From positions 4,107 through 68,106 of IMG/VR virus record IMGVR_UViG_3300031993_000066: a stretch of 64,000 nucleotides of DNA; one strand, given 5' to 3'. The notes under the pieces are model-generated. The model was given only the letters and a program-made list of their open reading frames with translations, was not told where the DNA came from and did not search any database. A program made the position numbers and the translations under genes. Each line of letters begins with the position of its first letter. The first letter of the stretch is position 1. The DNA is from a virus. Shown one piece after another: positions 18,254 through 55,872 of this stretch.

Positions 18254-19663
18254 TTACCGCTCCAGCCGTTTCTTCGCTCTCTCCGCCTGTTTCGCGTCCT
18301 CAGCGTCTTCTTCTTCGATTTCCTCCGCGTCGATGTCTCCGCCGGTCTGCTTTTCCCTTTGGTCGCGCTGCTGCTGCCTCCGAGCGTCCCTGTCGAACTG
18401 CTGCGCTTCCAGACGTTCCGGCAGGTTGCCGGTCTCTCGCACGTAGTCTTCGAGGGCTTCGTCCGGCATGATGACGCCGCACCCGGTCAGCTCTTTGATG
18501 TACGTGCTCAGGTCTTTCAGGTTCGGCGCGTCTGCGCTGCTGTGCGTCAGCGTCGGATATTCGGTGATCCCGCTGAAATGCTCCGCGTTCATCCCGATCA
18601 GCCGGGGAATGCCCTGACTGTTGAACACCTCGCAGATGATGTCGAGGTAGCTGTCCAGCGCCACGCTGAACAGGTCAGTCTTGTCCGCGCTCAGCGCGAA
18701 GCTGCCAACTCCCTGATGGCCCAGCAGCAGGAAATCCGCCATCACGCTCATGGCGATTCGTGTGTCGTACCTCTCGATGATCGCGTTCGTGTCAAACTGC
18801 CGCCTGCCTCCACTGGTGAGCAGCGTGAACTCCCATCCAGCCGGCAGCACCAGTCCCTCCGTCGCGTCGCGGCGCACGTTGCGGACGATTGTCTCCGCCC
18901 GCTGGAATGCCTGCACCATCACCGGGTCATCCTGATTCCAGATGTCCCACGTCTCAGGCGGATGCAGAATCGGCAGGCCTGCGAGGTCTCTTTCCAGCCC
19001 CATGCCCTCGATCTCTTGAATCCTGCGCTTGAAATACCACGAGCGGTAGGCGCTGCGCAGGATGCTCCGCCCTTCCGGGTTGGCTTTCCTGCTCTTCGTG
19101 CGGAAGTGCAGGGCTTTCCCGATGGGAACCGTCGCCATGACGTAGCGCGGGGGAGGGAGCTGCGTCATCCCGGTCAGGTTGTCGTAATCGTCGTACTCCC
19201 AGCGGAAGAGCGTTTCCTGCGCTCTGATCGGGAGTTTCTGCCATCCGATCAGCCCGTCAGTGTACTTGCTTTTCTGTCGGGGGTCGTTCACGTTGCCGGT
19301 GCGCCGCTTGTACACGATTTCGTGGTAGCTCCACCCGAACGGCAGGAAGGACAGAATTTCGCTGATGGTGTCCGTCCACGTGTCCTGCATGTCGTTCATG
19401 CAGCTCTCCACAAACTCCGCGCACTCTCTGTCCTTCGCGCTGTCGCCGCCGGGCTGGATGCTCCAGCTCGTTTTGCGGATGAGCATCTCGATGGTGTACA
19501 GAATCGCTCCGCACACATCGTCGTTTTCGCTCATCTCCCTGTAGACCTCGATGCCGTGCTTGCCCTGCAGCTCTTTGAGGAACTCTTCGGCAAAGATTCC
19601 CGCGTATCGCCTCTGTCCTATGCTGCCATATTCCTTCATGCTCTGCGGCATGTCTCTCTTCAC
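18254..19663 (-). CDS. Portal protein
   Basis: 469 aa after terminase; NPEGRSILRSAY...ERDLAG, GSFALS motifs. Confidence 0.9.
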   Translation of the reverse strand: MKRDMPQSMKEYGSIGQRRYAGIFAEEFLKELQGKHGIEVYREMSENDDVCGAILYTIEMLIRKTSWSIQPGGDSAKDRECAEFVESCMNDMQDTWTDTISEILSFLPFGWSYHEIVYKRRTGNVNDPRQKSKYTDGLIGWQKLPIRAQETLFRWEYDDYDNLTGMTQLPPPRYVMATVPIGKALHFRTKSRKANPEGRSILRSAYRSWYFKRRIQEIEGMGLERDLAGLPILHPPETWDIWNQDDPVMVQAFQRAETIVRNVRRDATEGLVLPAGWEFTLLTSGGRRQFDTNAIIERYDTRIAMSVMADFLLLGHQGVGSFALSADKTDLFSVALDSYLDIICEVFNSQGIPRLIGMNAEHFSGITEYPTLTHSSADAPNLKDLSTYIKELTGCGVIMPDEALEDYVRETGNLPERLEAQQFDRDARRQQQRDQREKQTGGDIDAEEIEEEDAEDAKQAERAKKRLER

Positions 19664-19664
19664 C

Positions 19665-21110
19665 TCATCTCCGCTGCCACGGGCTTATTCTGTCCGCGCC
19701 GTAATTCGTCGGTGGCAGGCTTGACGCCGTGCCTGCTGCCATCCAGTTGATCGCCTGCGTCATTGCGTCCACATCGTCATCGTGCGCTGCGTTCGGGAAT
19801 GCCGCGCACTCTTCCAAAAAATCGTGAATCCACGGTGCTATCCGTGGATGTGGCAGGTAGATGTTCCCTGCTTCCGCGTATGGGGCGACGGCCTGCGCCC
19901 TCACCACCTTGCCGCCTTGCGGGTCGATGGGTATCAGGCCGGAAATCTCTTTCCTCAGCAGCTCGATGACCGCCGTGCCGTTCGCCTTGTCTTCGACGAG
20001 CTTCGCTCTTGCGCGTGGGTGCTTCGCCGTCAGCGTTCGGATGCTCCGCATCGTGTCGCTGATTCCCATGTGATCGTGTACCCTGTCCACGAGGTAGTAG
20101 TTCGGGCCGGTGCGCTGCCATACGTGCCCTGCCACAAAGTCGTGGTTGTCGCCGTCCTTGAACGTACAGTCCCAGCTCTGTACCTGCATCCCCGCTTCCG
20201 GGAGCACTTCGTAGAACTGGAACCAGCTCCGTTTCAGGATTCCGCCCTCCGCCGGTGCCGGTCTCTGCTGGTAAAGCCCTGCGAATGAGTAGCTGCCAAC
20301 CTTGCCTTTCTGCTTCCGCATCCACTCTTCGTCGTACCCGTGCTCAGGCCACAGGGCTTCGCCCTCTGTCCGGCCGAGCAGGTCTTCCGCGTCTTCCGCG
20401 ATGGCCGGTAGCCGCAGTATCGTCCAGTCCTCCACGTCGCAGTATTCCGGGTTCAGCAGGCGCCCAACCAGATCGTCTTCGTGCCAGCGCGTCATTATCA
20501 CGATCACTGCCGCGCCGGGGTGTGTACGGGTTGAGAACGTCGCCGTGTACTCATCCCATATCCTGTCCCTCATGGTTTTGCTGTCTGCTTCCTGCCGATT
20601 CTTCACCGGGTCATCGATAATCAGCAGGTCAGCGCCCTCGCCGGTTGCTGCGCCGCCGAAGCCCACGGAGATCATTCCGCCCCTGCGCCTGTCCAGATCC
20701 CAGTTGGACGCGCTGTGGTTGATCTGGCTCAGGCCGATGTCCCACAGCCGCGCCCCGAATTCCTCTATCTTTTCGCGGTTCTTCCTTCCGAATTTCTGCG
20801 CGAAGGTGTCGTTGTAGCTGACCTCCATCACGCGCTTGTCCGGGAACCGTCCGAGGTAGTAGCTGGGAAAAGTCTCTGTCACCGCCATGCTCTTTCCGTG
20901 TCGGGGTGGCATGCAGATAATCAGACGCTTTTCCTCTCCGCGAATCACCGCGTCCAGCTTTTCACAAATGAGCCGGTGGTGCCTGCCGGGAATCCATGCT
21001 CCGTGGTGGACGTACTCGCAGTACCGCAGGTAGTGCCGCCGCGCCCATTCCCTCTCGAAGTCTGCGCGGGTCGCAATCGGGAGCTTTCCTGCCCTGCGTA
21101 CTTCGCTCAT
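19665..21110 (-). CDS. terL: Terminase large subunit
   Basis: MPPRHGKS Walker A, LLIIDDPVK Walker B, MTRWHEDD, SWD, FPNAAHDDDVDA. Confidence 0.96.
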   Translation of the reverse strand: MSEVRRAGKLPIATRADFEREWARRHYLRYCEYVHHGAWIPGRHHRLICEKLDAVIRGEEKRLIICMPPRHGKSMAVTETFPSYYLGRFPDKRVMEVSYNDTFAQKFGRKNREKIEEFGARLWDIGLSQINHSASNWDLDRRRGGMISVGFGGAATGEGADLLIIDDPVKNRQEADSKTMRDRIWDEYTATFSTRTHPGAAVIVIMTRWHEDDLVGRLLNPEYCDVEDWTILRLPAIAEDAEDLLGRTEGEALWPEHGYDEEWMRKQKGKVGSYSFAGLYQQRPAPAEGGILKRSWFQFYEVLPEAGMQVQSWDCTFKDGDNHDFVAGHVWQRTGPNYYLVDRVHDHMGISDTMRSIRTLTAKHPRARAKLVEDKANGTAVIELLRKEISGLIPIDPQGGKVVRAQAVAPYAEAGNIYLPHPRIAPWIHDFLEECAAFPNAAHDDDVDAMTQAINWMAAGTASSLPPTNYGADRISPWQRR

Positions 21111-21651: not shown

Positions 21652-22293
21652 CTATGCTGTCGCAATTCGGGCGAGCATAGCGATTTCGGCTCCGAGATAC
21701 AGCCTTTTCAGGCGTTTCGTCTCGTGAATGAGGTGTGCCAGGTACTCTTTGTCCTCAGGGCTTTCGCAGACGATGGCGACGTTGAAGCTCTGTATCACGT
21801 CGGCTTCCGCCTGCTCTTCGTAGTCCTTGAATTCGTCCCTGTCCTGCTTGTCCGGGGTTGCGTCGGCCTCCGAGTAGTAGAGCTGCTCCGCTTCGTTGAA
21901 GCCGGTGAATTCGAGGTCGAATCCGCTGTTGGCGAGGTTCGTCATCTCCGTCATCAACTTGTCGTAGTTCCACCCTGCGATCTCCGCCGTCTTATTGTCT
22001 GCGATGCGGTAGGCGTTGATTTCGTCTTCCGTCAGGCCGTAGGCGTATGTGCAGGGGACTTCTTCCATCCCCAGCATCATGCAGGCTTTCAGCGTCGCGT
22101 GTCCGCACACGATCACGTCGTTTTCGTCGATGACGATGGGCTGCTTCATCCCCAGCCTGTCGATCATCCTCTTGAGCTTCAGCGCCGTCGCTTCGTTTTG
22201 CCGTGGGTTGTTGTGGTAGGGGATAAGGTCTGTGACCTTTTTCATCACCACTTCCAACCGGCTGTTTTTGTCCTTCCCTAACTTGCCCGCCAT
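21652..22293 (-). CDS. ParB/Srx N-terminal domain protein
   Basis: LIPYHNNPRQN, PIVID, VIVCGH, AYRIADNKTAE, WNYDKL. Confidence 0.85.
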   Translation of the reverse strand: MAGKLGKDKNSRLEVVMKKVTDLIPYHNNPRQNEATALKLKRMIDRLGMKQPIVIDENDVIVCGHATLKACMMLGMEEVPCTYAYGLTEDEINAYRIADNKTAEIAGWNYDKLMTEMTNLANSGFDLEFTGFNEAEQLYYSEADATPDKQDRDEFKDYEEQAEADVIQSFNVAIVCESPEDKEYLAHLIHETKRLKRLYLGAEIAMLARIATA

Positions 22294-22463
22294 TTGCTTC
22301 TTACCTCCGTTATCGTATTGTACTTATACAGTATTCTCTATACTTTTCTTTTTCTCGTAGGCGAGATAGTATATATAATATACTGTATTAGGTCGCCGCT
22401 CATTTGCCCTTAACTTGCACGCTTGACTAAATCCGCCTTTCTTAAACTAACACGCGAGCGAGT

Positions 22464-22521
22464 TGTGTTAAACAACGTTGGCTGCGTTAGAACTGCGTTG
22501 GATTGCGTTGGATTGCGTTGG
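22464..22521. repeat. Tandem ~10-bp repeats (TGCGTTGGAT-like)
   Basis: tgcgttagaac tgcgttggat tgcgttggat tgcgttgg plus degenerate copies upstream. Confidence 0.8.
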
Positions 22522-22523
22522 TC

Positions 22524-23816
22524 TCAGCACCCTCCGCACCTTTCGCATGGGCTGATGTAGGTCTTCGTTCCGTCGAACGTGTAGATGATGTCTCCGTTGC
22601 TGTCCTTCCCGCTGGGCTTCATCACTCCGCCGAAAAGCGTGTACGGCGACTGTCCGGCGTATGGGTTATTCCAGAGGTATCGCAGGTAGTCCCGCATCGT
22701 CATGTACTCGAACTTCGCTCTGTGCTCCACGCTGATCGTGTTGAAGCCCTCCGCCTTTCCGTATGGGAAATCGAGGTGCCGCATGTCCGCGTCGATCTCT
22801 GCGAATGTGACCTTGCCGTTCCTCTTGCACAACTGCAGCGCGTAGCTGAAATTGCCCCTGCTGTAATTGTACCGGGGGTCTTCCGGCAATCCGCAGCAGC
22901 ACGAGCCGGTACATGCTTCCTTGTAGTGCGCGTCGCTGACGTAATACCTCATTCCGAGCTTTTTGCACAGCTCGTCCATCTCCCGGATGTACTTCTCCTT
23001 GACCTTGCGGTTCAACCGCAGGTAGCCGCATCCGCTGCTGTACTTTTTGTAAAAGTCGAAGATGTCAAAGCCTGCGCACTCGCTGATGATCTCGTAGTTC
23101 TTCCGGGCGACTACGCTCCGCGCTTCGAGGCAGAAGAATTCCGTCGTGACCGCCGTCGCGCCTGCGTCATGCGCCGCCACGATCAGGTCTTTGTAATCCT
23201 TGCTGCTGACGCCTATGATGAACGGCCTCAGCCTCAGCGTCGCCTCGCCCTTGTTGAGCTGCGAGTAAATCTTCATGGCCTCCAACCGGGCTTTCGGGCT
23301 TGGTACGCCCTGCTCGATCTTCGCCGCCATCCGTTCGTCCAGCGTGATGATGCTGAACTTCATGTTCCAGTTGTCCGCGCCCTCGAACAGGCTCGTGTAC
23401 CTCTGATCGTGGAACACCCACGCGCTCTTCGTCGAAAAGCAAATCGGGTAGTTCAACTGCCGGAGGAACCGCAGGATTTCCAGCGTCACGCCGTACTTCC
23501 GCTCGAATCCGTCGAACTGATCGCTCAGCCCGCCCCACTGTATGGGCCTCCGCTGCGCTATCCATCCGTTGAATTGGCTGTCTGTTTCCAGCGCGAACAG
23601 CTTCCGAATCTTTTCCGGGTTCACGCTCCGCACGACCTTGTTGAGGTATTCCTGCCTCTTCTTCTCTCCGCCGATGCCGCGCTGGTATTGCGAGAAGCAG
23701 TACACGCATCCGAACGAGCAGTTGCTGTAGGTGTCGAAGGTCATCGGCAGGCTGCAGTCGGCAATCTCATTCGACCACCGCGGGCTTCCGTAGTCCATCT
23801 TGATGTCCCGCGTCAT
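22524..23816 (-). CDS. Radical SAM enzyme (SPL-like clade)
   Basis: DTYSNCSFGCVYCF CxxxCxxC motif; FSTK, LRLRPFIIG; extra CCC and C-terminal CxxCxxC. Confidence 0.88.
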   Translation of the reverse strand: MTRDIKMDYGSPRWSNEIADCSLPMTFDTYSNCSFGCVYCFSQYQRGIGGEKKRQEYLNKVVRSVNPEKIRKLFALETDSQFNGWIAQRRPIQWGGLSDQFDGFERKYGVTLEILRFLRQLNYPICFSTKSAWVFHDQRYTSLFEGADNWNMKFSIITLDERMAAKIEQGVPSPKARLEAMKIYSQLNKGEATLRLRPFIIGVSSKDYKDLIVAAHDAGATAVTTEFFCLEARSVVARKNYEIISECAGFDIFDFYKKYSSGCGYLRLNRKVKEKYIREMDELCKKLGMRYYVSDAHYKEACTGSCCCGLPEDPRYNYSRGNFSYALQLCKRNGKVTFAEIDADMRHLDFPYGKAEGFNTISVEHRAKFEYMTMRDYLRYLWNNPYAGQSPYTLFGGVMKPSGKDSNGDIIYTFDGTKTYISPCERCGGC

Positions 23817-24601
23817 CCTCCGTCACCTGCCCTTTGCTGCGCTGCGTTCCTGAACTCCGCGCACGGCACCTTTTCGTCCTTGACCTTGACCCGGACCTCC
23901 CACGGCTTTCCCTTTTGCGGCGCGAAGATTTCCGGGTATCTGGCGCACAGCTTCTTCACCGACCTCAGGTTTTCGTCCTGATGCCACTTCTCCCTGTACC
24001 CGTTCTTGTCCTTGTTATGGTCTGCCGTCACCGCCAGGTTGTTGAACCGCACCACCCGGCCTCCGTTCTTCAGTATCCGGCCGCAAATCTCCGCATCTTC
24101 CTTCGTCTCGAAGTTTTCATCGAACCGTATCGGGAATCCCGCCGCGAATCCGAACACCGTGTTGACCGCCACCCTTGTGCTGATGTCGTTCGACATGAAG
24201 AACGCATTGGCTACCGGGTAAATCCCGAACACGTGCGCTTTCAGCCTCCGCGTCTGCTCGAAGCATCGGTTGAACGCCAGCGCCATGTCTATCCGCCTCT
24301 CGATGGGCTTCAGCTTTCCTGCGTTCATCGTGAAAAGCGTCTTCACGTCATCGTCCAGCATCAGGATGTTTTGCCCTTTGAGCCGTTTGAGGATGTTGTT
24401 CCTCGCCGCCACTCCACGCGTCGCCGGCATCTTCACGATGTTCGCCCTGCCCGCGTGGATTTGGTATTCGGCGTAGTCTTCGTCCGTCTGCACGAAAATC
24501 CAGATCAGCTCTTTGGGTACGCCCATCCCCGACAGGTAATCGAGCGTTGTCTGCCTGTTCACCCTCTTGTAGCTCGGTATCGCGTAAACATACTTTTCCA
24601 T
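23813..24601 (-). CDS. GT-A glycosyltransferase, TET-associated/GREB1-like type
   Basis: YAIPSYKR, ARNNIL, MLDDDV (DxD), KEDAEI. Confidence 0.8.
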   Translation of the reverse strand: MEKYVYAIPSYKRVNRQTTLDYLSGMGVPKELIWIFVQTDEDYAEYQIHAGRANIVKMPATRGVAARNNILKRLKGQNILMLDDDVKTLFTMNAGKLKPIERRIDMALAFNRCFEQTRRLKAHVFGIYPVANAFFMSNDISTRVAVNTVFGFAAGFPIRFDENFETKEDAEICGRILKNGGRVVRFNNLAVTADHNKDKNGYREKWHQDENLRSVKKLCARYPEIFAPQKGKPWEVRVKVKDEKVPCAEFRNAAQQRAGDGG

Positions 24602-24603
24602 GC

Positions 24604-25044
24604 TCACGCCTCCGATGCTCTCTTCCGCGCCGGTCTCACCTGCGCCTCGAAAATTCGGTCTCTCAGGCTTGCGCTGCTCAGGCCGTGATCTCGCCTGTTG
24701 TACACAATCGGGATCCCGCGCCTCTCGCAAATGTTCTTCCCCGTGAAGGGTTTGTCCCGGTATTCCTCCCCGACAAACCTCACGTCGTAGTCCAGCATCT
24801 CCAGCGCCAGCGCGAGGTCTTCTTCGCCCTCCAGCGGTATCACCTCATCCACGCCGTCGCAGTGCGCCACCCGGAACCACCGCTCGAACACGCTTTCGAT
24901 GGGCTTGTTTTTGAGCGGTCTGTCCGTCGGGTCGCAGATAAGCCCCACGATCAGGTAGTCGCACTGTTCGGCGCATTCCTGAATCATGGCGATGTGTCCG
25001 GGGTGGAAAAGGTCTCCCACCACCGACGTGAATCCTATGACCAT
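24604..25044 (-). CDS. Cytidylyltransferase (TagD-like HxGH family)
   Basis: DLFHPGH, CDYLIVGL, ER, VDEVIP, R.HGLSS. Confidence 0.88.
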   Translation of the reverse strand: MVIGFTSVVGDLFHPGHIAMIQECAEQCDYLIVGLICDPTDRPLKNKPIESVFERWFRVAHCDGVDEVIPLEGEEDLALALEMLDYDVRFVGEEYRDKPFTGKNICERRGIPIVYNRRDHGLSSASLRDRIFEAQVRPARKRASEA

Positions 25045-26102
25045 CTCTCTCCATACTCCTTTATCAGTTCGTCGATGACCCTGTCCACTGTCTTCCGCTG
25101 TTTCTCTGTCCTGTACTTGTACAGCCTTATCCAGTGCGTGATTTCCAGCAGCTGCACCAGCCTGCCGTCTTCGACCTTCCTGTCGAATGCCTCCCTCAGC
25201 CCTCTCAGGTCTGCTTTCCCGAATCCGAACAGCCGTTCGTAGCCTGTCATCGAGAATCGAATCTTCGCCAAATCCAGCAGGTAGCTCGAATAATCACCCT
25301 TGTTATTCGGGTCGATCACCTTGATGCCGCCGCCGGTGCTGCGGATGACGTTCGACAAGCTCAAATCTCCGTGGGAGAAGCTGACCTTCGCCTGCAGCTC
25401 TGCTTCGCTGCCCTGCATCTCACGGATGACCCACTCCGTTTCTTCGCTCTTGCTGTGCGTCAGCAGGTTGTCGCAGTATGCTCCGATGTCCTTCCGCCAG
25501 TCCGGGATCGCCGCGAACCGCTCCGTCAGCCGCAGCAGTTCGTCGATGTCCTTCTCCCCGGCTTCGTCTGCCAGCGCCGTTCCCGGTATGTACTCCATGT
25601 ACAGCGTGTCCAGCGTCCGCGAGTAAATCCGGGGGAGGTATTCGCCCAGCCCGTGCTCCGCTGCCTGCAAGTACCATTCGTGCTCCGCCGCTGCTTTCTC
25701 CGTTGTCTTGATGACCGTCTTGTCTTCCAGCCACACCTTTGAGCCGCTTCCGCCCCTCAGTGCCAGCGGCTCGAAATCCGCTTCGAGGAACGTCTCCACG
25801 CTCATGGCCTTATCGTCGATGTACCAGTCCGCGAGCGGCTTCCCGAATATCAGCTCATCGTACATCACGCCGTGCCTTTTCAGCCACTCCCTCAGCACGG
25901 GTTCGTTGCGCTCCCTTATCAGCCGCAAATCTCCCTTGCAGCTATTCTGCCCTCTCGCTGTGTACAGCTTGATGCAGTAGCCCATTTCCTTGAGCCTGTT
26001 GATCTTGTCGATCACCGGCTGAATCGGCTTCGCGTTCGGGTAGTCCCGGTTGTGGTGTACGCTGATCGTATCGTCGATATCAAACACCAGCGTCCGCGCC
26101 AT
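25035..26102 (-). CDS. HAD phosphatase fused to APH/choline-kinase-like phosphotransferase
   Basis: LVFDIDDTI, YTAR, GKP.ADWYIDDKA; then GGSGS, VIK, HGDLSLSN, IDP, DLAK. Confidence 0.85.
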   Translation of the reverse strand: MARTLVFDIDDTISVHHNRDYPNAKPIQPVIDKINRLKEMGYCIKLYTARGQNSCKGDLRLIRERNEPVLREWLKRHGVMYDELIFGKPLADWYIDDKAMSVETFLEADFEPLALRGGSGSKVWLEDKTVIKTTEKAAAEHEWYLQAAEHGLGEYLPRIYSRTLDTLYMEYIPGTALADEAGEKDIDELLRLTERFAAIPDWRKDIGAYCDNLLTHSKSEETEWVIREMQGSEAELQAKVSFSHGDLSLSNVIRSTGGGIKVIDPNNKGDYSSYLLDLAKIRFSMTGYERLFGFGKADLRGLREAFDRKVEDGRLVQLLEITHWIRLYKYRTEKQRKTVDRVIDELIKEYGERWS

Positions 26103-26757
26103 CCGAATCACCTTCCAGCATCTTCCGTATCTGCGCGACGGTGTACCTGCGCTTCAGCTCCCCGGTCTCTCCGATGGTCTCCGCGACTACCTTCTCTTCG
26201 TCTTCGTCCTTACACGCGATGATTACCACGTATTCCTCATCCGTGTCTTCGCTGTCTTCCGGCTCTTCTTCGTCCGGGACGTACTCTCCGCTCTCCGTTT
26301 CCGGCGTGTCGTAATCCTCCGTCCCGGCCTCGAATCCCGCTTCGCTCATGTCGATGCCGCCGATCTCGAATGCGTCGAAGCCGGTTTTGCTCAGGTCGAA
26401 TCCGTTGTTCCTCAGCGTCTCGAATTCCTTCGCCAGCGCCTCCGTGTCCCATTGGCTGTCTTCCTGCGTTCGGTTGTCTTCCAGCCGGTACGCATTGGCC
26501 TCCGCCTTGCTCAGGTCATCTGCCAGCACACACGGCACTTCCTTGTGGCCCAAAATCCGCGCCGCCTTGATGCGCGTGTGTCCTGCGATCAGCACTTTGT
26601 CTTTGTCGATTATCAGTGGCCTGCGCCATCCGTAGTTCTTCAGGCTCTCCACCACCGCCTCGACCGGCTCCCCGTCGTTGTCCCTCGGATTGTTCTCGTA
26701 CTCCCTTATTTCGTCAATCGGGAGATACACGATCTGCGTGACCATTCGCTTCTTCAT
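26080..26757 (-). CDS. ParB/Srx N-terminal domain protein with acidic tail
   Basis: YENNPRDN, PLIID, IAGHTRIKAA, AYRLEDNRT. Confidence 0.87.
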   Translation of the reverse strand: MKKRMVTQIVYLPIDEIREYENNPRDNDGEPVEAVVESLKNYGWRRPLIIDKDKVLIAGHTRIKAARILGHKEVPCVLADDLSKAEANAYRLEDNRTQEDSQWDTEALAKEFETLRNNGFDLSKTGFDAFEIGGIDMSEAGFEAGTEDYDTPETESGEYVPDEEEPEDSEDTDEEYVVIIACKDEDEEKVVAETIGETGELKRRYTVAQIRKMLEGDSDGADAGV

Positions 26758-26849
26758 GTGCTCCGCCCTCCTAAAAATAATGCGCCGCCCGCGATGCGCG
26801 GGTGGCGCTTCCGGGGTGCCGTTCATGGCATCCCTTCCCAGTGATTATA

Positions 26850-29955: not shown

Positions 29956-30483
29956 TCATCCCTTTACGCACCTCCCGCATCCGTCGATCTCGTGACAGAC
30001 GCCTCCGTGGTACATGCACGTCGGCACCAGCCATCTCTCCAGTTCCGGCGTGGCCTTGATCGCTTCGTCGCACATCATCTTCACAACGTGCCGCGTCTTC
30101 GCGCTGGCCTTGCTGCACAGCCTCTTATTCGCTACGGTCATCAGTTCTTCGCCGTTGAGGTAGTAGATCATGTTGACCGGCGTGTTCCGTGGCGCTCTGT
30201 CTCCGTCGATCTTTTCCTGCCTGTCGTTCCTCAGGCTGCTGATGAATGGCACCGCGTGGACGTGTCGGGCGAGGTGCGTCGATGTGTTCGACGGGATTCC
30301 CTCGATCAGGAATGCGTAGTTCAGCACCCGGATGGGGCTGTGCCGCGCTCCCAGCAGCTTTTCCAGCAGCTCGCTGGACGGCGGGGTGTTCGGTTCCTGC
30401 GTCTTTCCCATCGTTATCCACACGCACCGCTTCAGCAGCTTCAGCTCCCTCTCTTCCGGGCCGTAAATCAGCGTGACCTTCAT
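29956..30483 (-). CDS. ThyX-like FAD-dependent thymidylate synthase homologue (divergent)
   Basis: HSPIR, HLARHV-x7-SLR, N.EEL...RLC, LVPTC...C.E...CG; start with GGAGG RBS. Confidence 0.7.
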   Translation of the reverse strand: MKVTLIYGPEERELKLLKRCVWITMGKTQEPNTPPSSELLEKLLGARHSPIRVLNYAFLIEGIPSNTSTHLARHVHAVPFISSLRNDRQEKIDGDRAPRNTPVNMIYYLNGEELMTVANKRLCSKASAKTRHVVKMMCDEAIKATPELERWLVPTCMYHGGVCHEIDGCGRCVKG

Positions 30484-30500
30484 CTGCTCATTCCTCCGTT

Positions 30501-30914
30501 TCATTTCCCGGCGAGCGCCATGTACGCTTCCGCCATCGCTTGGCTCATGCTCTGTCCGTTCTTCGCTCCGACCATCCAGCTCGGCGGCATCGGCATTCCG
30601 GGCTGCTGATACCGCCAGAGGTGCAGGCAGAACGGGAAGTTGTTGACGTATTCGCTTTCCGGCGGGTGATATTCCACGCAAACCTCTTCCGGGTAGAAGA
30701 ACGTCTTTTTCACGAGGCACATTTCGTCCCACGTCGGGCAGCGGTTCGACCAGCTCACCGACACGTGATCCCATCCACCGCCGGTGCTCCACTGCACCAT
30801 CGCCATCTTGCTGGGCCTCTTGTAGTCCAGCGCCATGCATCCCATTCCGCCGTCTTCGCCGCTTCTTATGACCTGCAATCGCGGCTGCTGCAAAATCTCG
30901 CTCAGTGTCTTCAT
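30501..30914 (-). CDS. Conserved phage protein
   Basis: GWDHVSVS..RCPTWDEMC..K..F, YVNNFPFCLHLW. Confidence 0.7.
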   Translation of the reverse strand: MKTLSEILQQPRLQVIRSGEDGGMGCMALDYKRPSKMAMVQWSTGGGWDHVSVSWSNRCPTWDEMCLVKKTFFYPEEVCVEYHPPESEYVNNFPFCLHLWRYQQPGMPMPPSWMVGAKNGQSMSQAMAEAYMALAGK

Positions 30915-32248
30915 CTTTTCCTCCCATCCGCACAGAACCATTCCGGGTCTGTGATGCAGATTCCACCGTTCTTCCAGTGCTCCGCGCACTGCCCGCACCG
31001 CACGATTTCCTCACAGATCGTCGGCGCTCTACTTACGATCTCCGCGCATCGCCTCGCCGTGTTGAACCGTTCCCGGTTCCGGGTCTCCGCGCTCTTGATG
31101 ATCGGCGCTATCCGCGCCAGCACTTCGTCCGCGTCAATCCGTCTCACCGGGCACCGCCTCCATCCTCACGCGCTGCCCGCACATCGGGCAGTAGTTGATG
31201 GGGTAGTGCATGTGCGCGGCTTCCTGCCCGTCTACCTCCATCCTGAGCGTGATCTGCCCTCCGTTGAAGAACATCAGCAGCCTTTGGTTTCCTTTCGGGT
31301 GCTCGAACAGCGCCATGCTGTACCGCCCTTCGCTGTCAGGCTTGCACCACGTGCACCGCTCCATCCTGTTGAATACTTCCTGCGCTGCGTCGATCTTCCG
31401 CTGCATCGCATCGACCCTCTTGTCGGATTCCTCGATCTCTTCCGGGGTGTAGGTCTCTCTCTCGAACGCCTCATCCCATGCTTTCGGCTTCTTCGCCATT
31501 ATTCCGCCTCCGTTCTCCATCCGCGCAGAACCAGTCTCCGTGGTGATACTCTTGGTAGTACCTGTCTTCTCCGAGCACGTTGGCGCGTCCGCTGTGCTTT
31601 TTGCAGAGCCATTCGACGCCCACGCATTTCCCGTGCTCGCAGTTCCTACAGCGCACCACCTGCGTCTGCGCTGCCGGTATGAGCTTCACGATCTTGCACA
31701 CGTCCCTCAGCTGTATCAGTGCTTCGCTCTCTTCGTCGCGGTAGCCGGGAATCTTCCGCAGCTCCCTTATCAGGGCTTCGCGGCTGATCGCGTCGGCTGT
31801 CGTGACCTGCGTCTCATTCCGCTGCTGTTGGCTGTTCACTCTCGATTACCTCCATTCGGCAGGTCGGGCAGGTGCAGCAGTGGAATGTGCCGTTCTTCGC
31901 GGTCTCGATTCTGTACTCCGCTGCGCTGGCGTCGAATACGCATCCGCACAGCCGACACTCGAACCGCTTCGCCATCGGGAATCGGGAGAGGTCTCCCTCT
32001 TTGATGATCTTCATTCCGGCTCGCCTCCCTGCTGCTCTTCGCCTCCGTCGATCTTGCATTCCTCGCAATCGTCGCCGGTCATCGCGTCCAGTGCGGCGGA
32101 CAGCGTCTCGATGACTTCGAGTGCGTCGTTCTTCAGCCGGTTCAGGCAGTAGGATGTCGGGTCGCGGTACGGGCATTCCGGGCACCGCATCTTATCGTCC
32201 GGGTTCCGTACTATGCAGCAGCGTAAGCCCTGCTTCACCTTCTCAATA

Positions 32249-33238: not shown

Positions 33239-34009
33239 CTATCCCTCCCACGGAAATTCCTGCTTGAAGTCCGCGCCCATGATCTCTCTGAGGCTCTCTT
33301 TCATAAAGACCGGGATCCCGTTGCCCTGCGCGTACCGGGCGATCTCATCCACCCATTCCTTTTCCGGGACGATCTTGCCCTTGCGGTTTCCCGTCTCCGC
33401 ACCGATGATCATCCATTGCGGGAGTTCTTTCCGCTCCGCTGCGCCGATGTAGCGGAACCGCTCGTGCAGCGGCTCGATGCTCACAAACGTGTTCACGCCC
33501 TCGCCGAAAAAGTACGGGGTATCAGGGGTCGGCGTAGAGCAGCCGAACCAGAAGTTATCCTCCGTCGGGAGCTGCCCCAGCTTTGCAAGGCTGATGTATC
33601 GTTCCGGGGCCTTCGTCAGGAACAGGTAGCGGTGCTGAGGTGCTTTCCGGCAGGCCTCGAACACTTCCTGAATCCATGCCAGCGGCACCCACTCCCCGAA
33701 AAGGTCTGCCATCGAACAGACAAAGACTGTCCGGGGCTGCTTCCACTTCTGAACTTCGTCCAATTTGTAGCGGTGGAGCGTAGGCTCGAAGTCGTGCAGG
33801 TACGGTACGATTGCACCGATCTTTCCGGGCATCGCTTTCTTTCGCGCCGGTTTGTCCAATTCGTGGATGTTCCGGCATTTCCATTCGGTCAGGTGCATCC
33901 CGAATCGGTTCGCAATCCCTCTTGCGTAGCAATACGGGCAATCGTGGTAGCAGCCGGTTACCGGGTTCCACGAGCTGTCGCACCAGTCAATCTTCGTGTT
34001 TCGTCCCAT
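33239..34009 (-). CDS. Gp37/Gp68 (DUF5131) radical-SAM-like protein
   Basis: TKIDWCDSSWNPVTGCYHDCPYCYA, FVCSMADLF, FLTK, SIEP, IIGAETG. Confidence 0.9.
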   Translation of the reverse strand: MGRNTKIDWCDSSWNPVTGCYHDCPYCYARGIANRFGMHLTEWKCRNIHELDKPARKKAMPGKIGAIVPYLHDFEPTLHRYKLDEVQKWKQPRTVFVCSMADLFGEWVPLAWIQEVFEACRKAPQHRYLFLTKAPERYISLAKLGQLPTEDNFWFGCSTPTPDTPYFFGEGVNTFVSIEPLHERFRYIGAAERKELPQWMIIGAETGNRKGKIVPEKEWVDEIARYAQGNGIPVFMKESLREIMGADFKQEFPWEG

Positions 34010-51950: not shown

Positions 51951-52949
51951 TCAGCGCCGCGCTGCCTTGTCAAGCTTCCGCCTTGCCTCATCCGCCTTTG
52001 CCCGTTCCCGTTCAAGCTCCGCCGCGTATGCCAGATCGTCCAGCTCCGCTTTCAGCCCTTCGTCCAGCGCATCGACCCAACTCTCCGGGATTTTGTGGAA
52101 GCCGCACAGAGCGCCCGCCAGCCCGCCGGTGATCGCTCCGATGGTGTCCGCGTCCCCTCCGAGGTTGACCGCAATCTCCACGGCCTTGCGGAAGTCCGTG
52201 GAGTAGCGCGTTGCCTGCCTGATGCTCCATACCGCCGCGAGGAAGCTGTCCTTCACGTAGCCGGTGGGATTCGGCGTGAATCCGGGCACCATGGCCCGGC
52301 GGTAGTCCGTCTTCCTGATCTCGTACTGGAAAACGTCCCATCGGGAATCGAACACTTTCCTGTTCAGCATCCTGCCGATGATCCTGCTGTACAGCTCGCA
52401 GGCCTCCGCTGCTTCCGGGTCGTAGTGCGTCATCCGGCTTATCGTCCCGGCCCAATGAGCGATGTTGTCTTCGCTGTAATAGTAGCAGGGGACGTAGGCC
52501 GTGCGCATCAAACTTCCGTTGCCTGCGCTGCGCCCTCCGAGGTTGATGTGGGCTTCCTTCGCTCCGTCAAGCCAGTCTTTCTGCGACGGCAATATGATGT
52601 TCCCTCTCTCCCTTGCGAGCCACTGTGCCCTGTTGATGCTCAGTCCGCAGGTGCTTCCGATGTCCTTTGGCCCTCCGTTGGCCCACTTGATGAAGTTCTC
52701 TCCGATGCTCTGCACCGGGGCGTTCGGCTGCTCGCAGATGCCTCTTGCCACGCAGAGCGTCATCTGCGTATCGTCGGTCACTTCGCCGGGGCGGACGTTC
52801 AGCCATCCTCCGCCGATCATCTCCGTTACGCGCCCGTGCTGCTCTTTGATGCTCTCTGCGCTCATAAACTCTACCGGCGCTCCGAGCGCGTCCCCCACGG
52901 CCACGCCGTAGAGGACGCCCCTGATCTTATCGTGCTGCATGTGATTCAT
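51951..52949 (-). CDS. ADP-ribosylglycohydrolase (DraG/ARH family)
   Basis: G.AVGDALGAPVEF, TDDTQM, GNGSLMR, TH, GGDADTIGAITGGLAGA. Confidence 0.93.
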   Translation of the reverse strand: MNHMQHDKIRGVLYGVAVGDALGAPVEFMSAESIKEQHGRVTEMIGGGWLNVRPGEVTDDTQMTLCVARGICEQPNAPVQSIGENFIKWANGGPKDIGSTCGLSINRAQWLARERGNIILPSQKDWLDGAKEAHINLGGRSAGNGSLMRTAYVPCYYYSEDNIAHWAGTISRMTHYDPEAAEACELYSRIIGRMLNRKVFDSRWDVFQYEIRKTDYRRAMVPGFTPNPTGYVKDSFLAAVWSIRQATRYSTDFRKAVEIAVNLGGDADTIGAITGGLAGALCGFHKIPESWVDALDEGLKAELDDLAYAAELERERAKADEARRKLDKAARR

Positions 52950-55872
52950 TCTCCGTTGCCTCCCTTTCTGATGTCCTTCGTGCTGTCGCCCTCGATGTAG
53001 TCGGGCATGGCTCCAAATTCTCCGCTCAGGCACAGCGATGTCGCCGCGCATACGATGGTCATTACCGTGGTGTCGAGGCTGTTCCAATCCAGCGCGTTCT
53101 TCAGCCCGCGCTTCGCCGCGTCGTACCCGACCTTTTGCGTCGTGAGCCGTATCAGCCTCGCTACGTGCTCTTTCAGCACCCGCTTGTCCGCTTCCGTGTC
53201 GGCGTTCTTCCCTGAGTTCTGACCCATCCAGAACATGCCCCACATGGAATCTTTCAAGCCTGCCCGCCAGTCGATCTTATCCGGCATCGGCTTCGCCTCC
53301 CTCCGTCTGCTGCGTCGCCCTGATGATCTTCCTGTAGACCATCGCTTCCAGCGCGTCGCCGATTTCCTTCTCCGTGAAATACGCTCTCTGCTCCACGTGC
53401 CGGATGTGGTTTCCGAAGTAGTCCGCGCTCAGGAGCCGTACTTCGACCTCGCCGGAGTGCTCCGTGTCGTTTTCCGAGTGCGTGAATGCCCTGAGCAGCT
53501 TGCCCTCCGACCTGTCTACCACGACGTGCATCATCTCACACACCGTCCTCTCCGTCGTATGCGCCGGGGAGGATTTCCCCGGCCGTGAAACCCCTGACGA
53601 TCATGTTGCCGATGCGCTGGAGTTCCTGCGGAATGAGGTCATCGGCGCGGATGTGCTGCCCTTCGTCTCCGAGGTACTGGACGTACCACCAGTTTTTCGG
53701 GGTGCTCTTTTCCTTTTGATCGAGGAACCGCAACTCATGGATGGCGAGCCTCAGCTTCTTCGCCGTCGGTGTGTTCGGGTTCGTCAGCTTGTCCAGCTTC
53801 TCTTGCAGCACCATCGCCGCAAATTCGAGGTTGCTCAGATCATGCGGATTTTTCATACTCTTCATCCTCCCTCTCCGTCTTCCGCAGGAGGCCTGCTTTC
53901 CGCAGGCGCTCCCTGTTCCTCTGTTCGATTGCCCGCATCAGTGCGAGCTTGTTCTTGACCGTCACGCTGCCGCCTCCCTTCTCAATGATCGCATTCGTCG
54001 AAGTAGTTGAAGATCGCATCGATGGCTTCGCGCTCCGTCTGCTTCTTCGTGATGGCGTCCACGAGGTTGTGCCCTTCCTGATAGGTGCTTTCGTCGATCA
54101 GCCCTGCCGCGTTGTAGGCCATCATGATGCCGAGCGTCTTCGCTGTGTTCAGGTTGTCCCTGTGCCTCGCTACCGCGAGCAGCGCCGTGGACAGCAGCGT
54201 CGCCGTCTGCCGGTTCAGGTTCCAGTAGGCGATAAAGCCCTGGATGATTACGAGGTACTGCTCATTCATCGTCTTCGCTCCCTTCTTCGAGGAAAATCGT
54301 CACGCGCTCGTATGGGCCTATGGTGCCTTGAAATGTCCTGATCTTGTACATCATGTACTTCCAGATTCCCGTGTAGGTCTTTACCCTGATGCCGTCCATC
54401 GTGTTCCAGAAGTTGATGCGTTCCCTCTCCGCCCACTCCGCTATCTTCGCGGACGGGACGAAATTCTTTCCGGCTTTCTGATCGAACGTGAATGTCTCCA
54501 CCCATTTGATTGCGTCGTAGTGCTCCGCGCTCCGATGATTCACGTACCGCAGGATTCCGTCGATGGTGTAGGCGTAGCCTCCGTTCGTGTCCATGTTCAC
54601 CCTCGACCAGTGGTAGGGGAAGCCGGTGCAGTTCGCCGCGCCGTCGAACCGGCACATCTGCGTCGCCAGCTCCCTGCCGCCCCTGAACCGCATCACGTCG
54701 CCTTCGACCTCTGTCCCGTCCTTCGCCGTAAAGCGGATGTACACGCGGTAGTTGCCGACGTCCAGCCCCTTTACGCTGCTGTCGTTCGCTGCGAAGTTGC
54801 ATCCGCGCTTCTCGACGAGCAGGTAGTTCTTGTCACCAATCCTCATCTTCATCCTCCCATTCGTCATCGTCATCGTCGCGCCACTCGAAACGGTACGGCC
54901 CTTCCGCCTCATAGATGGAATCGACCTTTCCTCTATGCGCCATCCGCTCCAAACGCTCGTCATCCATCAGCCTGTCCGCAAGCGCTTTGAGCAGGTCTTC
55001 GTAGTCGCCCTCCGTGAAGCACTGGTAGATGCGGTCGAGGATGTCCGCCGCGTTTGTATACTTCCGCAGCCAGTTCGCGTAGCTGCTCAGGTCGTTCGCC
55101 CAGCCGGCCAACGCGCCCGTGTTGTCGAACACGTCTCCGTCGTTGTACCACTTGTAGACCAGCTTGTTGACCGCCGTCACGGTCTGCGTTGCTTGATTCT
55201 CGCCCTCGCCGAACTCCGGCAGGTACTTCCCGTTGATCGCCTTGAACTCGATCTTGCCGAAATAGCTCCAATCTACCATTGCTTTCCCTTTCTCACCTGC
55301 CATCATCAGCGCCGGGTGGTGAATCCACGGCGGACGGGCTTTCGCCCGTTTCGGCTCAGTCCAGAACCTCATCCATGTATGTGACCTCTCCGTCGGCTAC
55401 GGTCTCCGCGAATGCCCTTGCTTCGCGCTCCGTGTTGAACGTCCGAATCCACTCAGGCCTCTTCCCGTGCGGTGTGTCCATCCAGTCGTATTCGACCATC
55501 CACGTCCTCTTCCCGAATTTCATGCTGCTCGCCTCCCTTACTTCCTGTACCCGAGAATCTGCCAGAAGTTGTCTTTGTCGTGCAGCTTTTCGATGAACTT
55601 GTTCATCGCCGCCTCCGTGCGGAAGCTCTTGCGCTTCGTGATGATCTCCGCCTTGCGGTTGAATTCCTGCCATGCTACCTCGAACATTTCCTTGCCCTCC
55701 CTTATCCCTTCAAGAATTGCTCTGCGATGATCTTCGCTGCCGCCTGGAATGCTTCCAGTGTGATCTTGCCCTCTGCCAGCATCCTGTGGTTTCCTTTGTT
55801 TGCCGCTTCTACTCCATCGACTTCCATGTACCACTTGATTGCGACGATGTAATCGTTGACCGTGCCCTTCAT
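52946..55872 (-). other. Run of about nine small hypothetical genes
   Basis: Tightly packed minus-strand ORFs with RBSs (e.g. 52946-53287, 53277-53543, 53536-53865, 53982-54269, 54262-, 54833-, 55702-55872). Confidence 0.65.

Follow-up and report, generated by a model that had tools for sequence, protein, structure and literature searches.

A radical SAM gene situated where phages of aerobes carry a TET/JBP dioxygenase was found in a 64,000-nt stretch of viral DNA (hereafter the window; all coordinates are positions in this stretch), and from this placement we propose that thymine is prepared for sugar attachment without O2. The best reading of its product, designated P0001, is a ParB-assisted O2-independent enzyme that would furnish thymine in DNA with a hydroxymethyl (or equivalent) handle, an assignment that we hold with as much doubt as confidence. 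Computation shows to which family and fold P0001 belongs, in which gene contexts it occurs, that known makers of the hydroxymethyl base are missing and that an interface with ParB is predicted. The sequence-only reading, which had viewed the gene as a possible oxygen-independent replacement for TET/JBP, is supported in that the comparative checks run came out as predicted, at the level of genomics only and without any biochemistry.

Radical SAM gene, its family and fold

The radical SAM gene (22524..23816, minus strand) encodes a protein of 430 aa from an ATG start. On the minus strand its junction with the gene of the TAGT-type glycosyltransferase reads ggaggATGAcg, with GGAGG standing just ahead of ATG, so that the radical SAM start codon ATG (23816-23814) overlaps the TAGT stop codon TGA (23815-23813). 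Translation gives the radical SAM motif C33-x3-C37-x2-C40 (CSFGCVYC) and also a CCC at 306-308 and a terminal C424-x2-C427-x2-C430. The claim made beforehand, that a CxxxCxxC radical SAM gene overlaps the glycosyltransferase stop via ATGA, held when judged by open reading frame, translation and junction sequence, and the additional CCC and terminal CxxCxxC that it pointed to are indeed present in P0001, but deserve less weight, their conservation being poor outside C307/C308.

The sole Pfam match of P0001, to PF04055, remains below threshold (19.9 bits where 29.5 are required), while homologues such as P0139 (42.6 bits) and P0144 (40.2 bits) pass it. The cysteines C33, C37 and C40 are kept in 51/51 aligned family members, and the fold model of P0001 (pLDDT 82.4, pTM 0.85) contains a radical SAM barrel. 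On the basis of these cysteines, the passing homologues and the modelled barrel, the assignment of P0001 to the radical SAM superfamily is shown by computation, as is its membership of a large, mostly viral and so far unnamed family of SPL-like (spore photoproduct lyase-like) radical SAM enzymes. The barrel occupies approximately residues 1-295 and is followed by a family-specific C-terminal domain of 135 residues (296-430) bearing a conserved CC (307-308) and WN (382-383). All 50 rows shown in the VIA fold comparison are radical SAM enzymes (Z 12.5-17.2), and so is nearly all of the Foldseek list, where a single aldolase stands at rank 35. The top six fold matches are all SPL (VIA Z 17.0-17.2, rmsd 3.2-3.3 Å, 258-261 residues, model residues 1-295; Foldseek E 2.9e-7 to 3.9e-6), the next best VIA match after SPL has Z 15.1, RlmN follows at Z 13.0, and viperin and BlsE are among the lower matches.

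P0001 matches four NCBIfam families at E ≤0.01, none at the curated cut-off. The barrel matches to the PA0069 family (E 9.9e-20, 70.8 bits, cut-off 360) and to the Rv2578c family (E 1.8e-13, 50.2 bits, cut-off 430) do not make it a member of either; the match to the radical SAM mobile pair protein B family is weaker (E 3.3e-05, 23.4 bits, cut-off 410). Inteins occur in this group of families as well as in that of P0001. The PA0069, Rv2578c and mobile pair protein B families are themselves without known function. The SPL family TIGR04070 (cut-off 400 bits) was not among the NCBIfam matches at E ≤0.01, and comparison by hhalign of the family alignment with the SPL-family protein L094 from a host-type genome, which scores 215 bits to TIGR04070, yielded a probability of only 1.4% (E 0.037), an alignment too weak to place the SPL catalytic residues (the H-donor C140 and the tyrosine relay) in P0001. 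No match was obtained among PDB sequences searched with the family profile at E up to 10. SPL acts on DNA, and a thymine-methyl radical belongs to its mechanism. The kinship with the SPL clade suggested beforehand thus held at the level of fold, SPL being the nearest solved one, and not by TIGR04070.

Beyond the SAM cluster, the only conserved cysteines of the family are C21 (49/51 members) and the pair C307 and C308 (47/51); both members lacking C21 are also devoid of the CC pair, that is, the three extra cysteines are lost together. Near-invariant in the same alignment are W382 and N383. A full auxiliary cluster built from C229, C284 and C306 was considered and rejected, these residues being kept in only 36, 33 and 18 of 51 members, respectively. 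The terminal CxxCxxC was likewise rejected as a second cluster: none of its cysteines is found in more than 4 of the 51, and any role for this element, put forward beforehand as an additional cluster, is unsupported. No complete auxiliary iron-sulfur motif is conserved across the 51 aligned family members.

Gene context, partners and known makers of hydroxymethyl bases

All genes of the window cassette described here are encoded on the minus strand. It is opened by an upstream ParB-like gene (26080..26826, 248 aa; ParB_N PF02195 with E 4.3e-07 and 30.3 bits over a cut-off of 26.3; phrog_620 with E 1.1e-49), after which comes a fusion of HAD-type phosphatase with APH-like kinase (25035..26111, 358 aa; APH PF01636, E 3.7e-06; TIGR01689, E 1.6e-20). 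The match to TIGR01689, a capsule biosynthesis phosphatase family, covers residues 7-113 of the fusion and stays below the cut-off; the first steps in the synthesis of a sugar or alcohol donor are presumed for this protein by inference. A cytidylyltransferase-like nucleotidyltransferase (24604..25044, 146 aa; PF01467, E 5.5e-10, 40 bits, cut-off 21; TIGR00125, E 1e-12, over cut-off), with weaker matches to rfaE domain II and glycerol-3-phosphate cytidylyltransferase, is inferred to make the nucleotide-activated donor for the glycosyltransferase. The latter, a TAGT DNA-base glycosyltransferase (23813..24601; PF20691, E 5.9e-16, 59.4 bits, cut-off 27.5), counts 262 aa from M44, where BLAST and alignment with homologues place its real start. 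Downstream of the radical SAM gene lies another ParB-like gene (21652..22293, 213 aa; phrog_620, E 5.8e-47), whose product is by alignment 35-39% identical to the ParB directly preceding the enzyme in other loci. Two ParB-like genes therefore flank the cassette, and the packaging genes identified by Pfam, TerL (19665-21110) and portal (18254-19663), come after the downstream one.

Comparison of 82 loci, based on our own ORF calls and BLAST clusters with the partner class taken from one Pfam-scanned representative per cluster, revealed a constant enzyme with varying partners: 43 loci have a TAGT-type partner, 28 a kinase/AADT-type one (AADT, amino acid:DNA transferase), a single locus has both and 10 have neither. 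The cluster representative of the kinases scores 25.2 against the 5-hmdU DNA kinase model PF18748, under the cut-off of 27, and four records bearing this cluster exceed it (e.g., 38.4 and 37.1 bits); the AADT cluster reaches 36.4 bits against PF18724 (cut-off 26.2). When applied to whole records, the Pfam models of 5-hmdU kinase and AADT matched only 6 and 8 of 51, respectively, and owing to this insensitivity the partner classes rest on BLAST clusters. Both 5-hmdU kinase and amino acid:DNA transferase, as characterised, need a hydroxymethyl base. The HAD/kinase and nucleotidyltransferase clusters of the window recur in only 9/82 and 7/82 loci. A MetK-like gene, read as SAM supply, is present in 18/82. 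In 14/82 loci a second, smaller SPL-like radical SAM protein is encoded, the role of which is unknown.

The enzymes of loci L008 (with TAGT) and L009 (with kinase) are 98.8% identical, and those of L035 (with TAGT) and L036 (with ParB only) 99.3%; between the window and L033 the radical SAM enzyme shares 65% of residues, the glycosyltransferase only 25%. In L036, L039 and L041 the ParB gene comes first and is followed, after a 50-bp gap, by that of the enzyme, and the records of L036 and L041, with terminal repeats and 100% complete according to CheckV, have no TAGT, AADT or kinase match. The two activities can also be joined in one polypeptide. Of 23 forms exceeding 600 aa, 20 were scanned, and 8 of these are TAGT fusions, 3 of them TAGT-rSAM and 5 rSAM-TAGT, including one P-loop kinase-rSAM-TAGT; further TAGT fusions were found besides these. 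Of the two options offered beforehand, activation of the base and tailoring of the attached group, the first fits better because near-identical enzymes adjoin different transferases or none. Homologues without glycosyltransferase neighbours had been named in advance as an outcome that would refute the idea, and formally such are 38/82 loci; 28 of these 38, however, possess kinase/AADT types needing the hydroxymethyl base, and the idea is therefore widened, not refuted.

Known makers of hydroxymethyl bases were sought in 51 phage records, namely the genome of the window and 50 relatives, 29 of these records (28 of the relatives) being at least 90% complete. Whole records were searched for only 50 of 335 viral relatives, the 30 shortest of 80 fetched having been left out. 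TET_JBP (PF12851) found no match anywhere in the window's genome at E up to 1 and none in the 51 records (0/29 for those at least 90% complete), and phmmer with three phage TET proteins, which find each other in a control, detected nothing among 5,114 ORFs of 84 loci plus the whole genome. As a positive control, TET_JBP is situated directly upstream of TAGT in 3/3 cultured TAGT phages (Arthrobacter, Mycobacterium and Synechococcus) drawn from an annotated phage collection, a sample of n=3 which does not cover all TAGT neighbourhoods; the sensitivity of the Pfam model to phage enzymes is marginal, 2/3 controls falling under its curated cut-off. The mutual exclusivity of radical SAM and TET/JBP, proposed in advance as a check, came out as predicted in the 51 records and three cultured controls. 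The ThyA-type family PF00303 was absent as well (0/51 records; control positive in 10/14 genomes). C5-methyltransferase is encoded in only 2/51 records, which makes thymine a likelier target than 5mC.

A ThyX-like gene in the genome of the window (29956-31014) is weak, reaching 28.9 of the 87.9 bits required by TIGR02170. ThyX as a general nucleotide-level maker was rejected, occurring in only 3/51 records, although owing to this gene a nucleotide-level source is not excluded for the phage of the window alone. Also rejected, as an obligatory partner, was DUF5131 (33239-34009, similar to radical SAM mobile pair protein A), found in 2/51 records.

ParB is encoded in 66/82 loci, and its binding to the radical SAM enzyme is predicted by modelling, with no binding data at hand. 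The complex model of P0001 with the downstream ParB (21652..22293) scored 0.66, the best of 3 controls 0.00; this mark was reached by 58/80 solved complexes and 2/110 mismatched pairs, counts that hold only roughly because our own alignments were used for the complex model. At least 77% of contacts are shared between the runs of the model, and the partner has a pLDDT of at least 76. The predicted interface lies in the C-terminal part of the enzyme and includes the near-invariant W382 and N383. A parallel to such ParB-linked radical SAM enzymes is given by ParB-dependent phage T-dioxygenases (PMC13229309).

Pieces matching the window with 0-4 differences were detected in sequencing runs from two additional studies, and two others yielded diverged relatives; every one of these runs is labelled as bovine gut or gut metagenome (cattle and other animals). 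The anaerobic host assumed beforehand fits this recurrence in gut metagenomes. No RNA dataset was recorded as containing the stretch. A search of P0001 against 401 genomes of one bacterial phylum gave 2 matches and was uninformative on hosts; tblastn of P0001 against 50,697 phage records, Pseudomonas phage M6 included, was without a match. In the sequencing runs that matched the window some bins were without coverage, and three contig joints skip 77-282 bases, from which nothing was concluded.

Proposed reaction and competing explanations

According to the proposed explanation, the radical SAM enzyme would act on the phage's own finished DNA with the help of its ParB-like partner. SAM would be cleaved reductively to a 5′-deoxyadenosyl radical, which would take hydrogen from the thymine methyl and leave an allylic thymidyl radical, as in SPL chemistry; one electron would then be lost, possibly to a site formed by C21, C307 and C308 (the spatial proximity of which is unmeasured), and the intermediate would be captured by water to give 5-hydroxymethyluracil. 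In the window, the co-translated TAGT would then glycosylate the hydroxymethylated base using a donor that the HAD/kinase fusion together with the nucleotidyltransferase would supply, and the outcome would be a base-J-like modification shielding DNA just before packaging. Substrate, order of action and chemistry are inferred only, with neither biochemical nor DNA-composition data existing for any member of the family. The hydroxylation meets a problem in that an electron acceptor is required, yet no complete auxiliary-cluster motif is conserved.

A bolder reading, which we hold to be slightly less likely than not, is that with the family of P0001 a radical SAM enzyme is met for the first time as a DNA thymine hydroxylase, one that, with ParB assisting and without O2, would use water as the oxygen source to make 5-hydroxymethyluracil from thymine in finished DNA. 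To our knowledge, TET/JBP enzymes, which depend on O2 and 2-oxoglutarate, are the only ones known to hydroxylate 5-methylpyrimidines of DNA after replication. If the bolder reading is true, a second, unrelated solution would exist for a reaction otherwise known only from these dioxygenases, giving phages of anaerobes access to base-J-like glycosylated or amino-acid-decorated DNA and explaining DNA decoration in many gut and rumen phages that have TAGT, 5-hmdU-kinase or amino-acid:DNA-transferase but no maker. The SPL-like radical SAM clade would acquire its second DNA-modifying activity, the newly described ParB-activator principle would extend to an unrelated enzyme, and a thymine-directed DNA-labelling enzyme usable without oxygen might become available.

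The main rival, which we nevertheless consider unlikely, is a tailoring enzyme that, like gp53 of phage M6, rearranges or trims a group already present on the base, with the hydroxymethyl base coming from an unrecognised source. In its favour, gp53 is the only studied SPL-like phage enzyme, a radical SAM isomerase acting on N-alpha-glycinyl-thymidine in DNA after an amino-acid transferase (PMC8989533), and its gene is located just before that of the small terminase; hhalign of the family profile with gp53 covers 224 barrel columns (E 4e-4, probability 35%); the enzyme of the window is encoded after the glycosyltransferase and no full auxiliary cluster is conserved. Against it, BLASTP with gp53 aligns only the cluster motif (E 0.21), and the tblastn search of phage records was without a match in M6 or elsewhere. 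M6 has a ThyA-type gene (annotated as thymidylate synthase) and its own polymerase, whereas ThyA-type genes were not found here; the PLP-enzyme cluster never adjoins the enzyme in the 82 gene strings; and the enzymes 98.8-99.3% identical to each other are found beside TAGT, kinase or ParB alone, including complete genomes with nothing to tailor. Unlikely, too, is direct DNA chemistry other than thymine hydroxylation with the product then used by TAGT and kinase, for example RlmN-like methylene transfer to C5 of cytosine or uracil, a C-C or C-S linkage, or modification of another base. The joint loss of the three conserved extra cysteines speaks for it, resembling the cysteine pairs of RlmN/Cfr, as do the presence of RlmN among fold matches (Z 13.0) and the unsolved electron bookkeeping of hydroxylation. 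On the other side, SPL is above RlmN by 4 Z units, 5-hmdU DNA kinase and amino acid:DNA transferase, as characterised, are specific to the thymidine pathway, and T-dioxygenases occupy the same cassette slot in other phages.

Much less room is left for a donor-side enzyme modifying the nucleotide sugar before TAGT transfer, in the manner of DesII, BlsE or viperin. This very improbable option is favoured by the location in one operon with HAD/kinase and nucleotidyltransferase genes and by viperin and BlsE appearing among the lower fold matches, but 28/82 loci lack the glycosyltransferase and have kinase/AADT types instead, the HAD/kinase and nucleotidyltransferase clusters are rare as counted above, ParB-only loci exist, the partner in the predicted interface, ParB, is DNA-associated, and the best fold match, SPL, is a DNA enzyme. 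A plain DNA repair lyase, i.e., a phage spore photoproduct lyase for UV damage, is hardly to be expected either. Database names of cluster members do include "DNA repair photolyase" and SPL is the best fold match; yet TIGR04070 is not matched at E ≤0.01, hhalign to a real SPL-family protein gives the negligible probability cited above, the family includes fusions with TAGT and with kinases and has the extra 135-residue C-terminal domain, the gut habitat is dark, and the place of the enzyme in the 82 gene strings is the ParB-to-terminase slot, with ParB seen in 66 of them.

Comparison with known systems

The ParB-assisted preparation of thymine preferred here finds a close counterpart in phage cassettes whose thymine dioxygenase (5mYOX, TET/JBP clade C1) depends on ParB (O'Toole et al., PNAS 2026, PMC13229309). 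In these cassettes and in the radical SAM loci alike, a ParB-like gene adjoins that of the base-activating enzyme with terminase genes close by (PMC13229309), links to P-loop kinases, amino acid:DNA transferases or glycosyltransferases are observed, and post-replicative action on thymine is proposed. Unlike 5mYOX cassettes, the radical SAM loci have no oxidase (0/51) and contain instead a non-homologous radical SAM enzyme, the activity of which is inferred and for which neither O2 nor 2-oxoglutarate would be needed. P0001 has no homology to PF12851, and its likeness to TET/JBP is one of role and position, not of descent. The features of ParB-linked hypermodification cassettes, that is, ParB, terminase and users of the hydroxymethyl base, are thus present in the P0001 loci and the known maker is absent from them. 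The word "radical" is absent from the text of PMC13229309, and in the full-text literature searched, supplements not covered, we found no link of a radical SAM enzyme to TET/JBP replacement, nor radical SAM and 5mYOX together.

Among cultured phages, the slot of the radical SAM loci is seen in Mycobacterium phage Donny (gp1-gp6), where ParB, TET, TAGT, two more genes and terminase follow each other. Synechococcus phage S-CBWM1 (gp8-gp11) encodes TET, TAGT, HAD phosphatase and nucleotidyltransferase, the last two standing beside TAGT in the window too, and Arthrobacter phage Prairie (gp62-gp66) carries a TET-TAGT cassette. In all three TET_JBP directly precedes TAGT, whereas in the window radical SAM comes after TAGT and TET is lacking. 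The hosts of these phages are aerobes or oxygenic. Base J synthesis by JBP plus JGT is a related system.

The nearest solved structure is that of spore photoproduct lyase (PDB 4FHC and mutants; Z 17.2, rmsd 3.2 Å over 261 residues, 13% identity), with which P0001 has the CxxxCxxC cluster in common and from which it differs by the extra C-terminal domain with CC and WN and by its genomic role. Another SPL-like radical SAM enzyme, gp53 of Pseudomonas phage M6 (Lee et al., NAR, PMC8989533), is encoded in a thymidine-hypermodification cluster adjoining terminase genes. P0001 is not its orthologue, as judged by the BLASTP, hhalign and tblastn results given above, and the ThyA-type gene, PLP enzyme and polymerase of M6 set it apart from P0001-type phages, which are without a ThyA-type gene (0/51). 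Replacement of oxygenases by radical SAM enzymes is established for anaerobes, with anSME standing in for FGE and HemN for HemF. Their substrates are proteins or tetrapyrroles, and SPASM clusters are present in anSME; a SPASM-type motif is not conserved in the P0001 family. By analogy, anSME, HemN and the putative role of P0001 would share the same logic, in which a radical SAM enzyme replaces an O2-dependent oxidation in anoxic hosts.

The radical SAM gene and its cassette

The radical SAM gene occupies positions 22524-23816 of the minus strand and encodes 430 residues with three cysteine motifs: C33-x3-C37-x2-C40, a CCC run at 306-308 and CxxCxxC at the C-terminus. Its ATG start codon shares bases with the TGA stop codon of the gene upstream (minus-strand sequence ggaggATGAcg). 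The sequence-only reading, which had described a CxxxCxxC radical SAM ORF with these additional cysteine clusters and an ATGA overlap with a glycosyltransferase (GT) stop, is therefore confirmed in ORF, motifs and overlap. The upstream gene encodes a DNA-base GT of the TAGT family (PF20691 at 59.4 bits, cut-off 27.5), and alignments of homologues place its true start at M44, giving a gene of 23813-24601. Nearly all genes of the window lie on the minus strand, including the whole cassette, in which a ParB-like gene (26080-26826) is followed by a HAD-phosphatase/APH-kinase fusion (25035-26111), a cytidylyltransferase-like nucleotidyltransferase (24604-25044), TAGT as the fourth member and the radical SAM gene as the fifth. 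A spacer of 230 bp (22294-22523) separates the stop of the latter from a second ParB-like gene (21652-22293, minus strand), past which a small gene of unknown kind, TerL and a Mu-type portal are found in this order. Directly beyond the radical SAM stop, at roughly 22476-22521 (minus strand), a 10-base unit (CAACGCAATC-like) is repeated head to tail about five times, and an AT-rich stretch comes next; this arrangement might be a binding site for ParB or terminase, or a promoter region.

The source record (68,106 bp, rated 100% complete, 64 kb of it covered by the window) also encodes SSB, DnaB helicase, RecT, tyrosine integrase, a GH25/C39/PG-binding lysin, an ADP-ribosylglycohydrolase (51951-53243, minus strand, E 5e-64) and a reverse transcriptase (58936-60126, minus strand, RVT_1, E 3.7e-19), the last interpreted from sequence alone as part of a diversity-generating retroelement. 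The source is a temperate tailed phage. Lysins with GH25, C39 and PG-binding domains point to Gram-positive hosts, and such a host is suggested here. One more CxxxCxxC protein of the window (33239-34009, minus strand, CYHDCPYC at residues 20-27) matches DUF5131 (E 1.8e-37) and resembles "radical SAM mobile pair protein A" (99.5 bits, cut-off 355); as a general partner of the radical SAM enzyme it was rejected, since just two of the 51 related records have it.

Family, fold and predicted binding to ParB

A word-indexed search returned 2,157 hits at E <=0.001 among 5,002 candidates, and an exhaustive search of 50%-identity representatives 1,584 at the same threshold, 171 of them at <=1e-30. Atlas clusters of the family are 64-83% viral (among members with known taxon), and no match was found in 50,697 deposited phage genomes. 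Sources giving any name call family members "DNA repair photolyase"; the curated models touched (PA0069, Rv2578c and "mobile pair B" radical SAM proteins) are all far under their cut-offs, and the PHROGs entry, phrog_13321, is of unknown function. The AlphaFold model, built with 18 homologues in the alignment (pLDDT 82.4, pTM 0.85), has spore photoproduct lyase (SPL) as all six of its top PDB matches (Foldseek E 2.9e-7 to 3.9e-6); VIA-align superimposes residues 1-295 of the model on SPL over 258-261 residues with Z 17.0-17.2 and rmsd 3.2-3.3 A, the next enzyme being SuiB (Z 15.1). Residues 296-430, outside this match, are predicted to form a family-specific domain. Since profile, PDB-sequence and alignment comparisons reveal only negligible sequence kinship to real SPL, the protein is to be regarded as an SPL-like radical SAM enzyme yet not as SPL. 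A Bacillota metagenome-assembled genome with a homologue has its own SPL-family gene (L094:1486-2487, 215 bits to TIGR04070), and the absence of sequence kinship between this host-type SPL and the phage-type enzyme marks them as distinct.

Twenty of the 23 listed members above 600 aa were scanned: eight are TAGT fusions in both domain orders (one being kinase-enzyme-TAGT), one carries an FkbM methyltransferase, five have unrecognised extensions, and seven (P0137, P0148, P0150, P0158, P0191, P0225 and P0236) have intein, HINT or LAGLIDADG sequences inserted within their radical SAM domains. Insertions of this kind are common in conserved phage enzymes of DNA metabolism.

One subclass of phage T-dioxygenases requires an adjoining ParB (O'Toole et al., PMC13229309). 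The radical SAM enzyme (family alignment A1) was folded together with the downstream ParB (family alignment A3) in three runs with three controls; the complex score was 0.66 in each run (0.65-0.67), against 0.00 for the best control. Of 80 solved complexes 58 score this high, as do 2 of 110 mismatched pairs, a calibration that is only rough because our own alignments were used. Between runs at least 77% of contacts are shared and partner pLDDT is at least 76; the modelled interface brings residues 380-387 of the enzyme's C-terminal domain against ParB residues 128-166, with W382 and N383 kept in 50/51 and 47/51 family members. No radical SAM-ParB complex is known to have been solved, so a score derived from a memorised structure seems unlikely. 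Binding is thus supported by model prediction, without being demonstrated.

A constant enzyme with changing partners

From the 335 related viral loci, 80 were taken for ORF calling and clustering, together with two named metagenome-assembled genomes; partner classes are our own clustering with one representative per frequent cluster scanned against Pfam. In these 82 loci the slot between ParB and terminase genes holds an enzyme of this type, its neighbour being TAGT-type in 43 (three as fusions), kinase/AADT-type in 28, both in one and neither in 10; the kinase is a P-loop kinase matching 5-hmdU DNA kinase, and AADT denotes an amino acid:DNA transferase. ParB is present in 66 loci and GNAT in 11. 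Compared with the window, the enzyme is 65% identical in locus L033 and 68% in L019, against 25% and 28% for the GT, so that conservation is far stronger in the enzyme. Identity is 98.8% between the L008 (TAGT) and L009 (kinase) enzymes and 99.3% between those of L035 (TAGT) and L036 (ParB only). The gap between ParB and enzyme is only 50 bp in L036, L039 and L041, and matches to TAGT, AADT and kinase are all absent from the L036 and L041 records, which have terminal repeats and are 100% complete.

Other genes recur in these cassettes. A smaller SPL-like radical SAM paralogue of about 280 aa occurs in 14 of the 82 loci (e.g. L023:11836-12672; PA0069 family E 1.8e-24, TIGR04070 E 1.7e-4); four loci have a radical SAM/SPASM gene in its stead (e.g. 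L046:1024-1968), and the window has neither. A 284-aa MetK-like protein just past the radical SAM gene in 18 loci (e.g. L026:1873-2727) matches the SAM synthetase N-terminal domain only (PF00438 E 4.3e-10; metK E 4.8e-12, far under cut-off) and may serve as a SAM-supply or SAM-binding helper.

TAGT, 5-hmdU kinase and amino acid:DNA transferase, as characterised, all use a hydroxymethyl base (PMC8989533, PMC5889632, PMC13229309). TET_JBP was not found in the window's genome (Pfam, E up to 1) or in any of 50 related records, among which 28 reach 90% completeness or more; these whole-record searches covered 50 of 335 relatives, the 30 shortest of 80 fetched records being omitted. In a positive control the same search detected it in all three cultured phages that encode a TAGT homologue, where it immediately precedes TAGT in every case. 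The Pfam model is only marginally sensitive (two of three controls fall under the curated cut-off); phmmer with the three control TET proteins, which match each other, gave no match in 5,114 ORFs from all loci and the whole genome. ThyA-type hydroxymethylases were found in 0 of 51 records (control positive in 10 of 14 genomes), and ThyX-like genes in three, one being a weak copy in the window (29956-31014, minus strand) with Pfam Thy1 at 32.6 bits on its C-terminal 50 residues, TIGR02170 at 28.9 bits (cut-off 87.9) and a poor codon-position GC pattern. C5-methyltransferases occur in just two of 51 records, which favours thymine over 5-methylcytosine as target.

Public runs in which the stretch occurs carry the labels bovine gut, gut or rumen metagenome; apart from the possible source, four runs from four studies were examined, two with pieces at 0-4 differences and two with relatives about 3-10% diverged. 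Homologues are also present in named genomes, whose titles read Bacillota and uncultured Bacilli. The TET-bearing control phages infect Arthrobacter, Mycobacterium and Synechococcus, which are aerobic or oxygenic. As to the sequence-only suggestion that radical SAM in place of TET/JBP might follow host anaerobiosis, the contrast points in the predicted direction, on a small sample.

Proposed activity, rivals and known systems

The best-supported reading, which we consider as likely to fail as to hold, is ParB-assisted hydroxylation of the thymine methyl in DNA followed by TAGT glycosylation; substrate and chemistry are inferred, without experiment. The enzyme with ParB would take hydrogen from the thymine methyl, the allylic radical would be oxidised and then hydrated to 5-hydroxymethyluracil, TAGT would glycosylate this base with a donor from the HAD/kinase and nucleotidyltransferase genes, and the modified DNA would be packaged. 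That the product bears a hydroxyl group is argued from the kinase carried by relatives. This reading is weakest at the electron acceptor. Beyond the SAM cluster, only C21 (49/51) and C307/C308 (47/51) are conserved in the 51-member alignment, which reaches down to 29% identity, and both sequences without C21 also lack the CC pair; a cluster with an open site could be bound by these three cysteines, or they could take part in redox or covalent catalysis.

Among the rivals, a gp53-like tailoring enzyme acting on the attached group is improbable, since such an enzyme should change with the group, whereas near-identical family members (98.8-99.3%) persist with swapped or missing partners. Direct DNA chemistry other than thymine hydroxylation is likewise judged unlikely. 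A donor-side role, in which the enzyme would modify the nucleotide sugar ahead of its transfer by TAGT, is less plausible still, and a repair lyase, suggested by the SPL-like fold and the photolyase names, is very unlikely.

No description of a radical SAM enzyme in the activating slot was found in the literature searched, and the word "radical" is absent from the 2026 ParB/5mYOX paper (PMC13229309) and the 2023 GT preprint. The kind of system, ParB-linked and packaging-adjacent phage DNA hypermodification, is already known. Cultured TET-TAGT phages show close synteny: Mycobacterium phage Donny has the order ParB, TET, TAGT, deacetylase, kinase and terminase, and S-CBWM1 has TET, TAGT, HAD phosphatase and nucleotidyltransferase.
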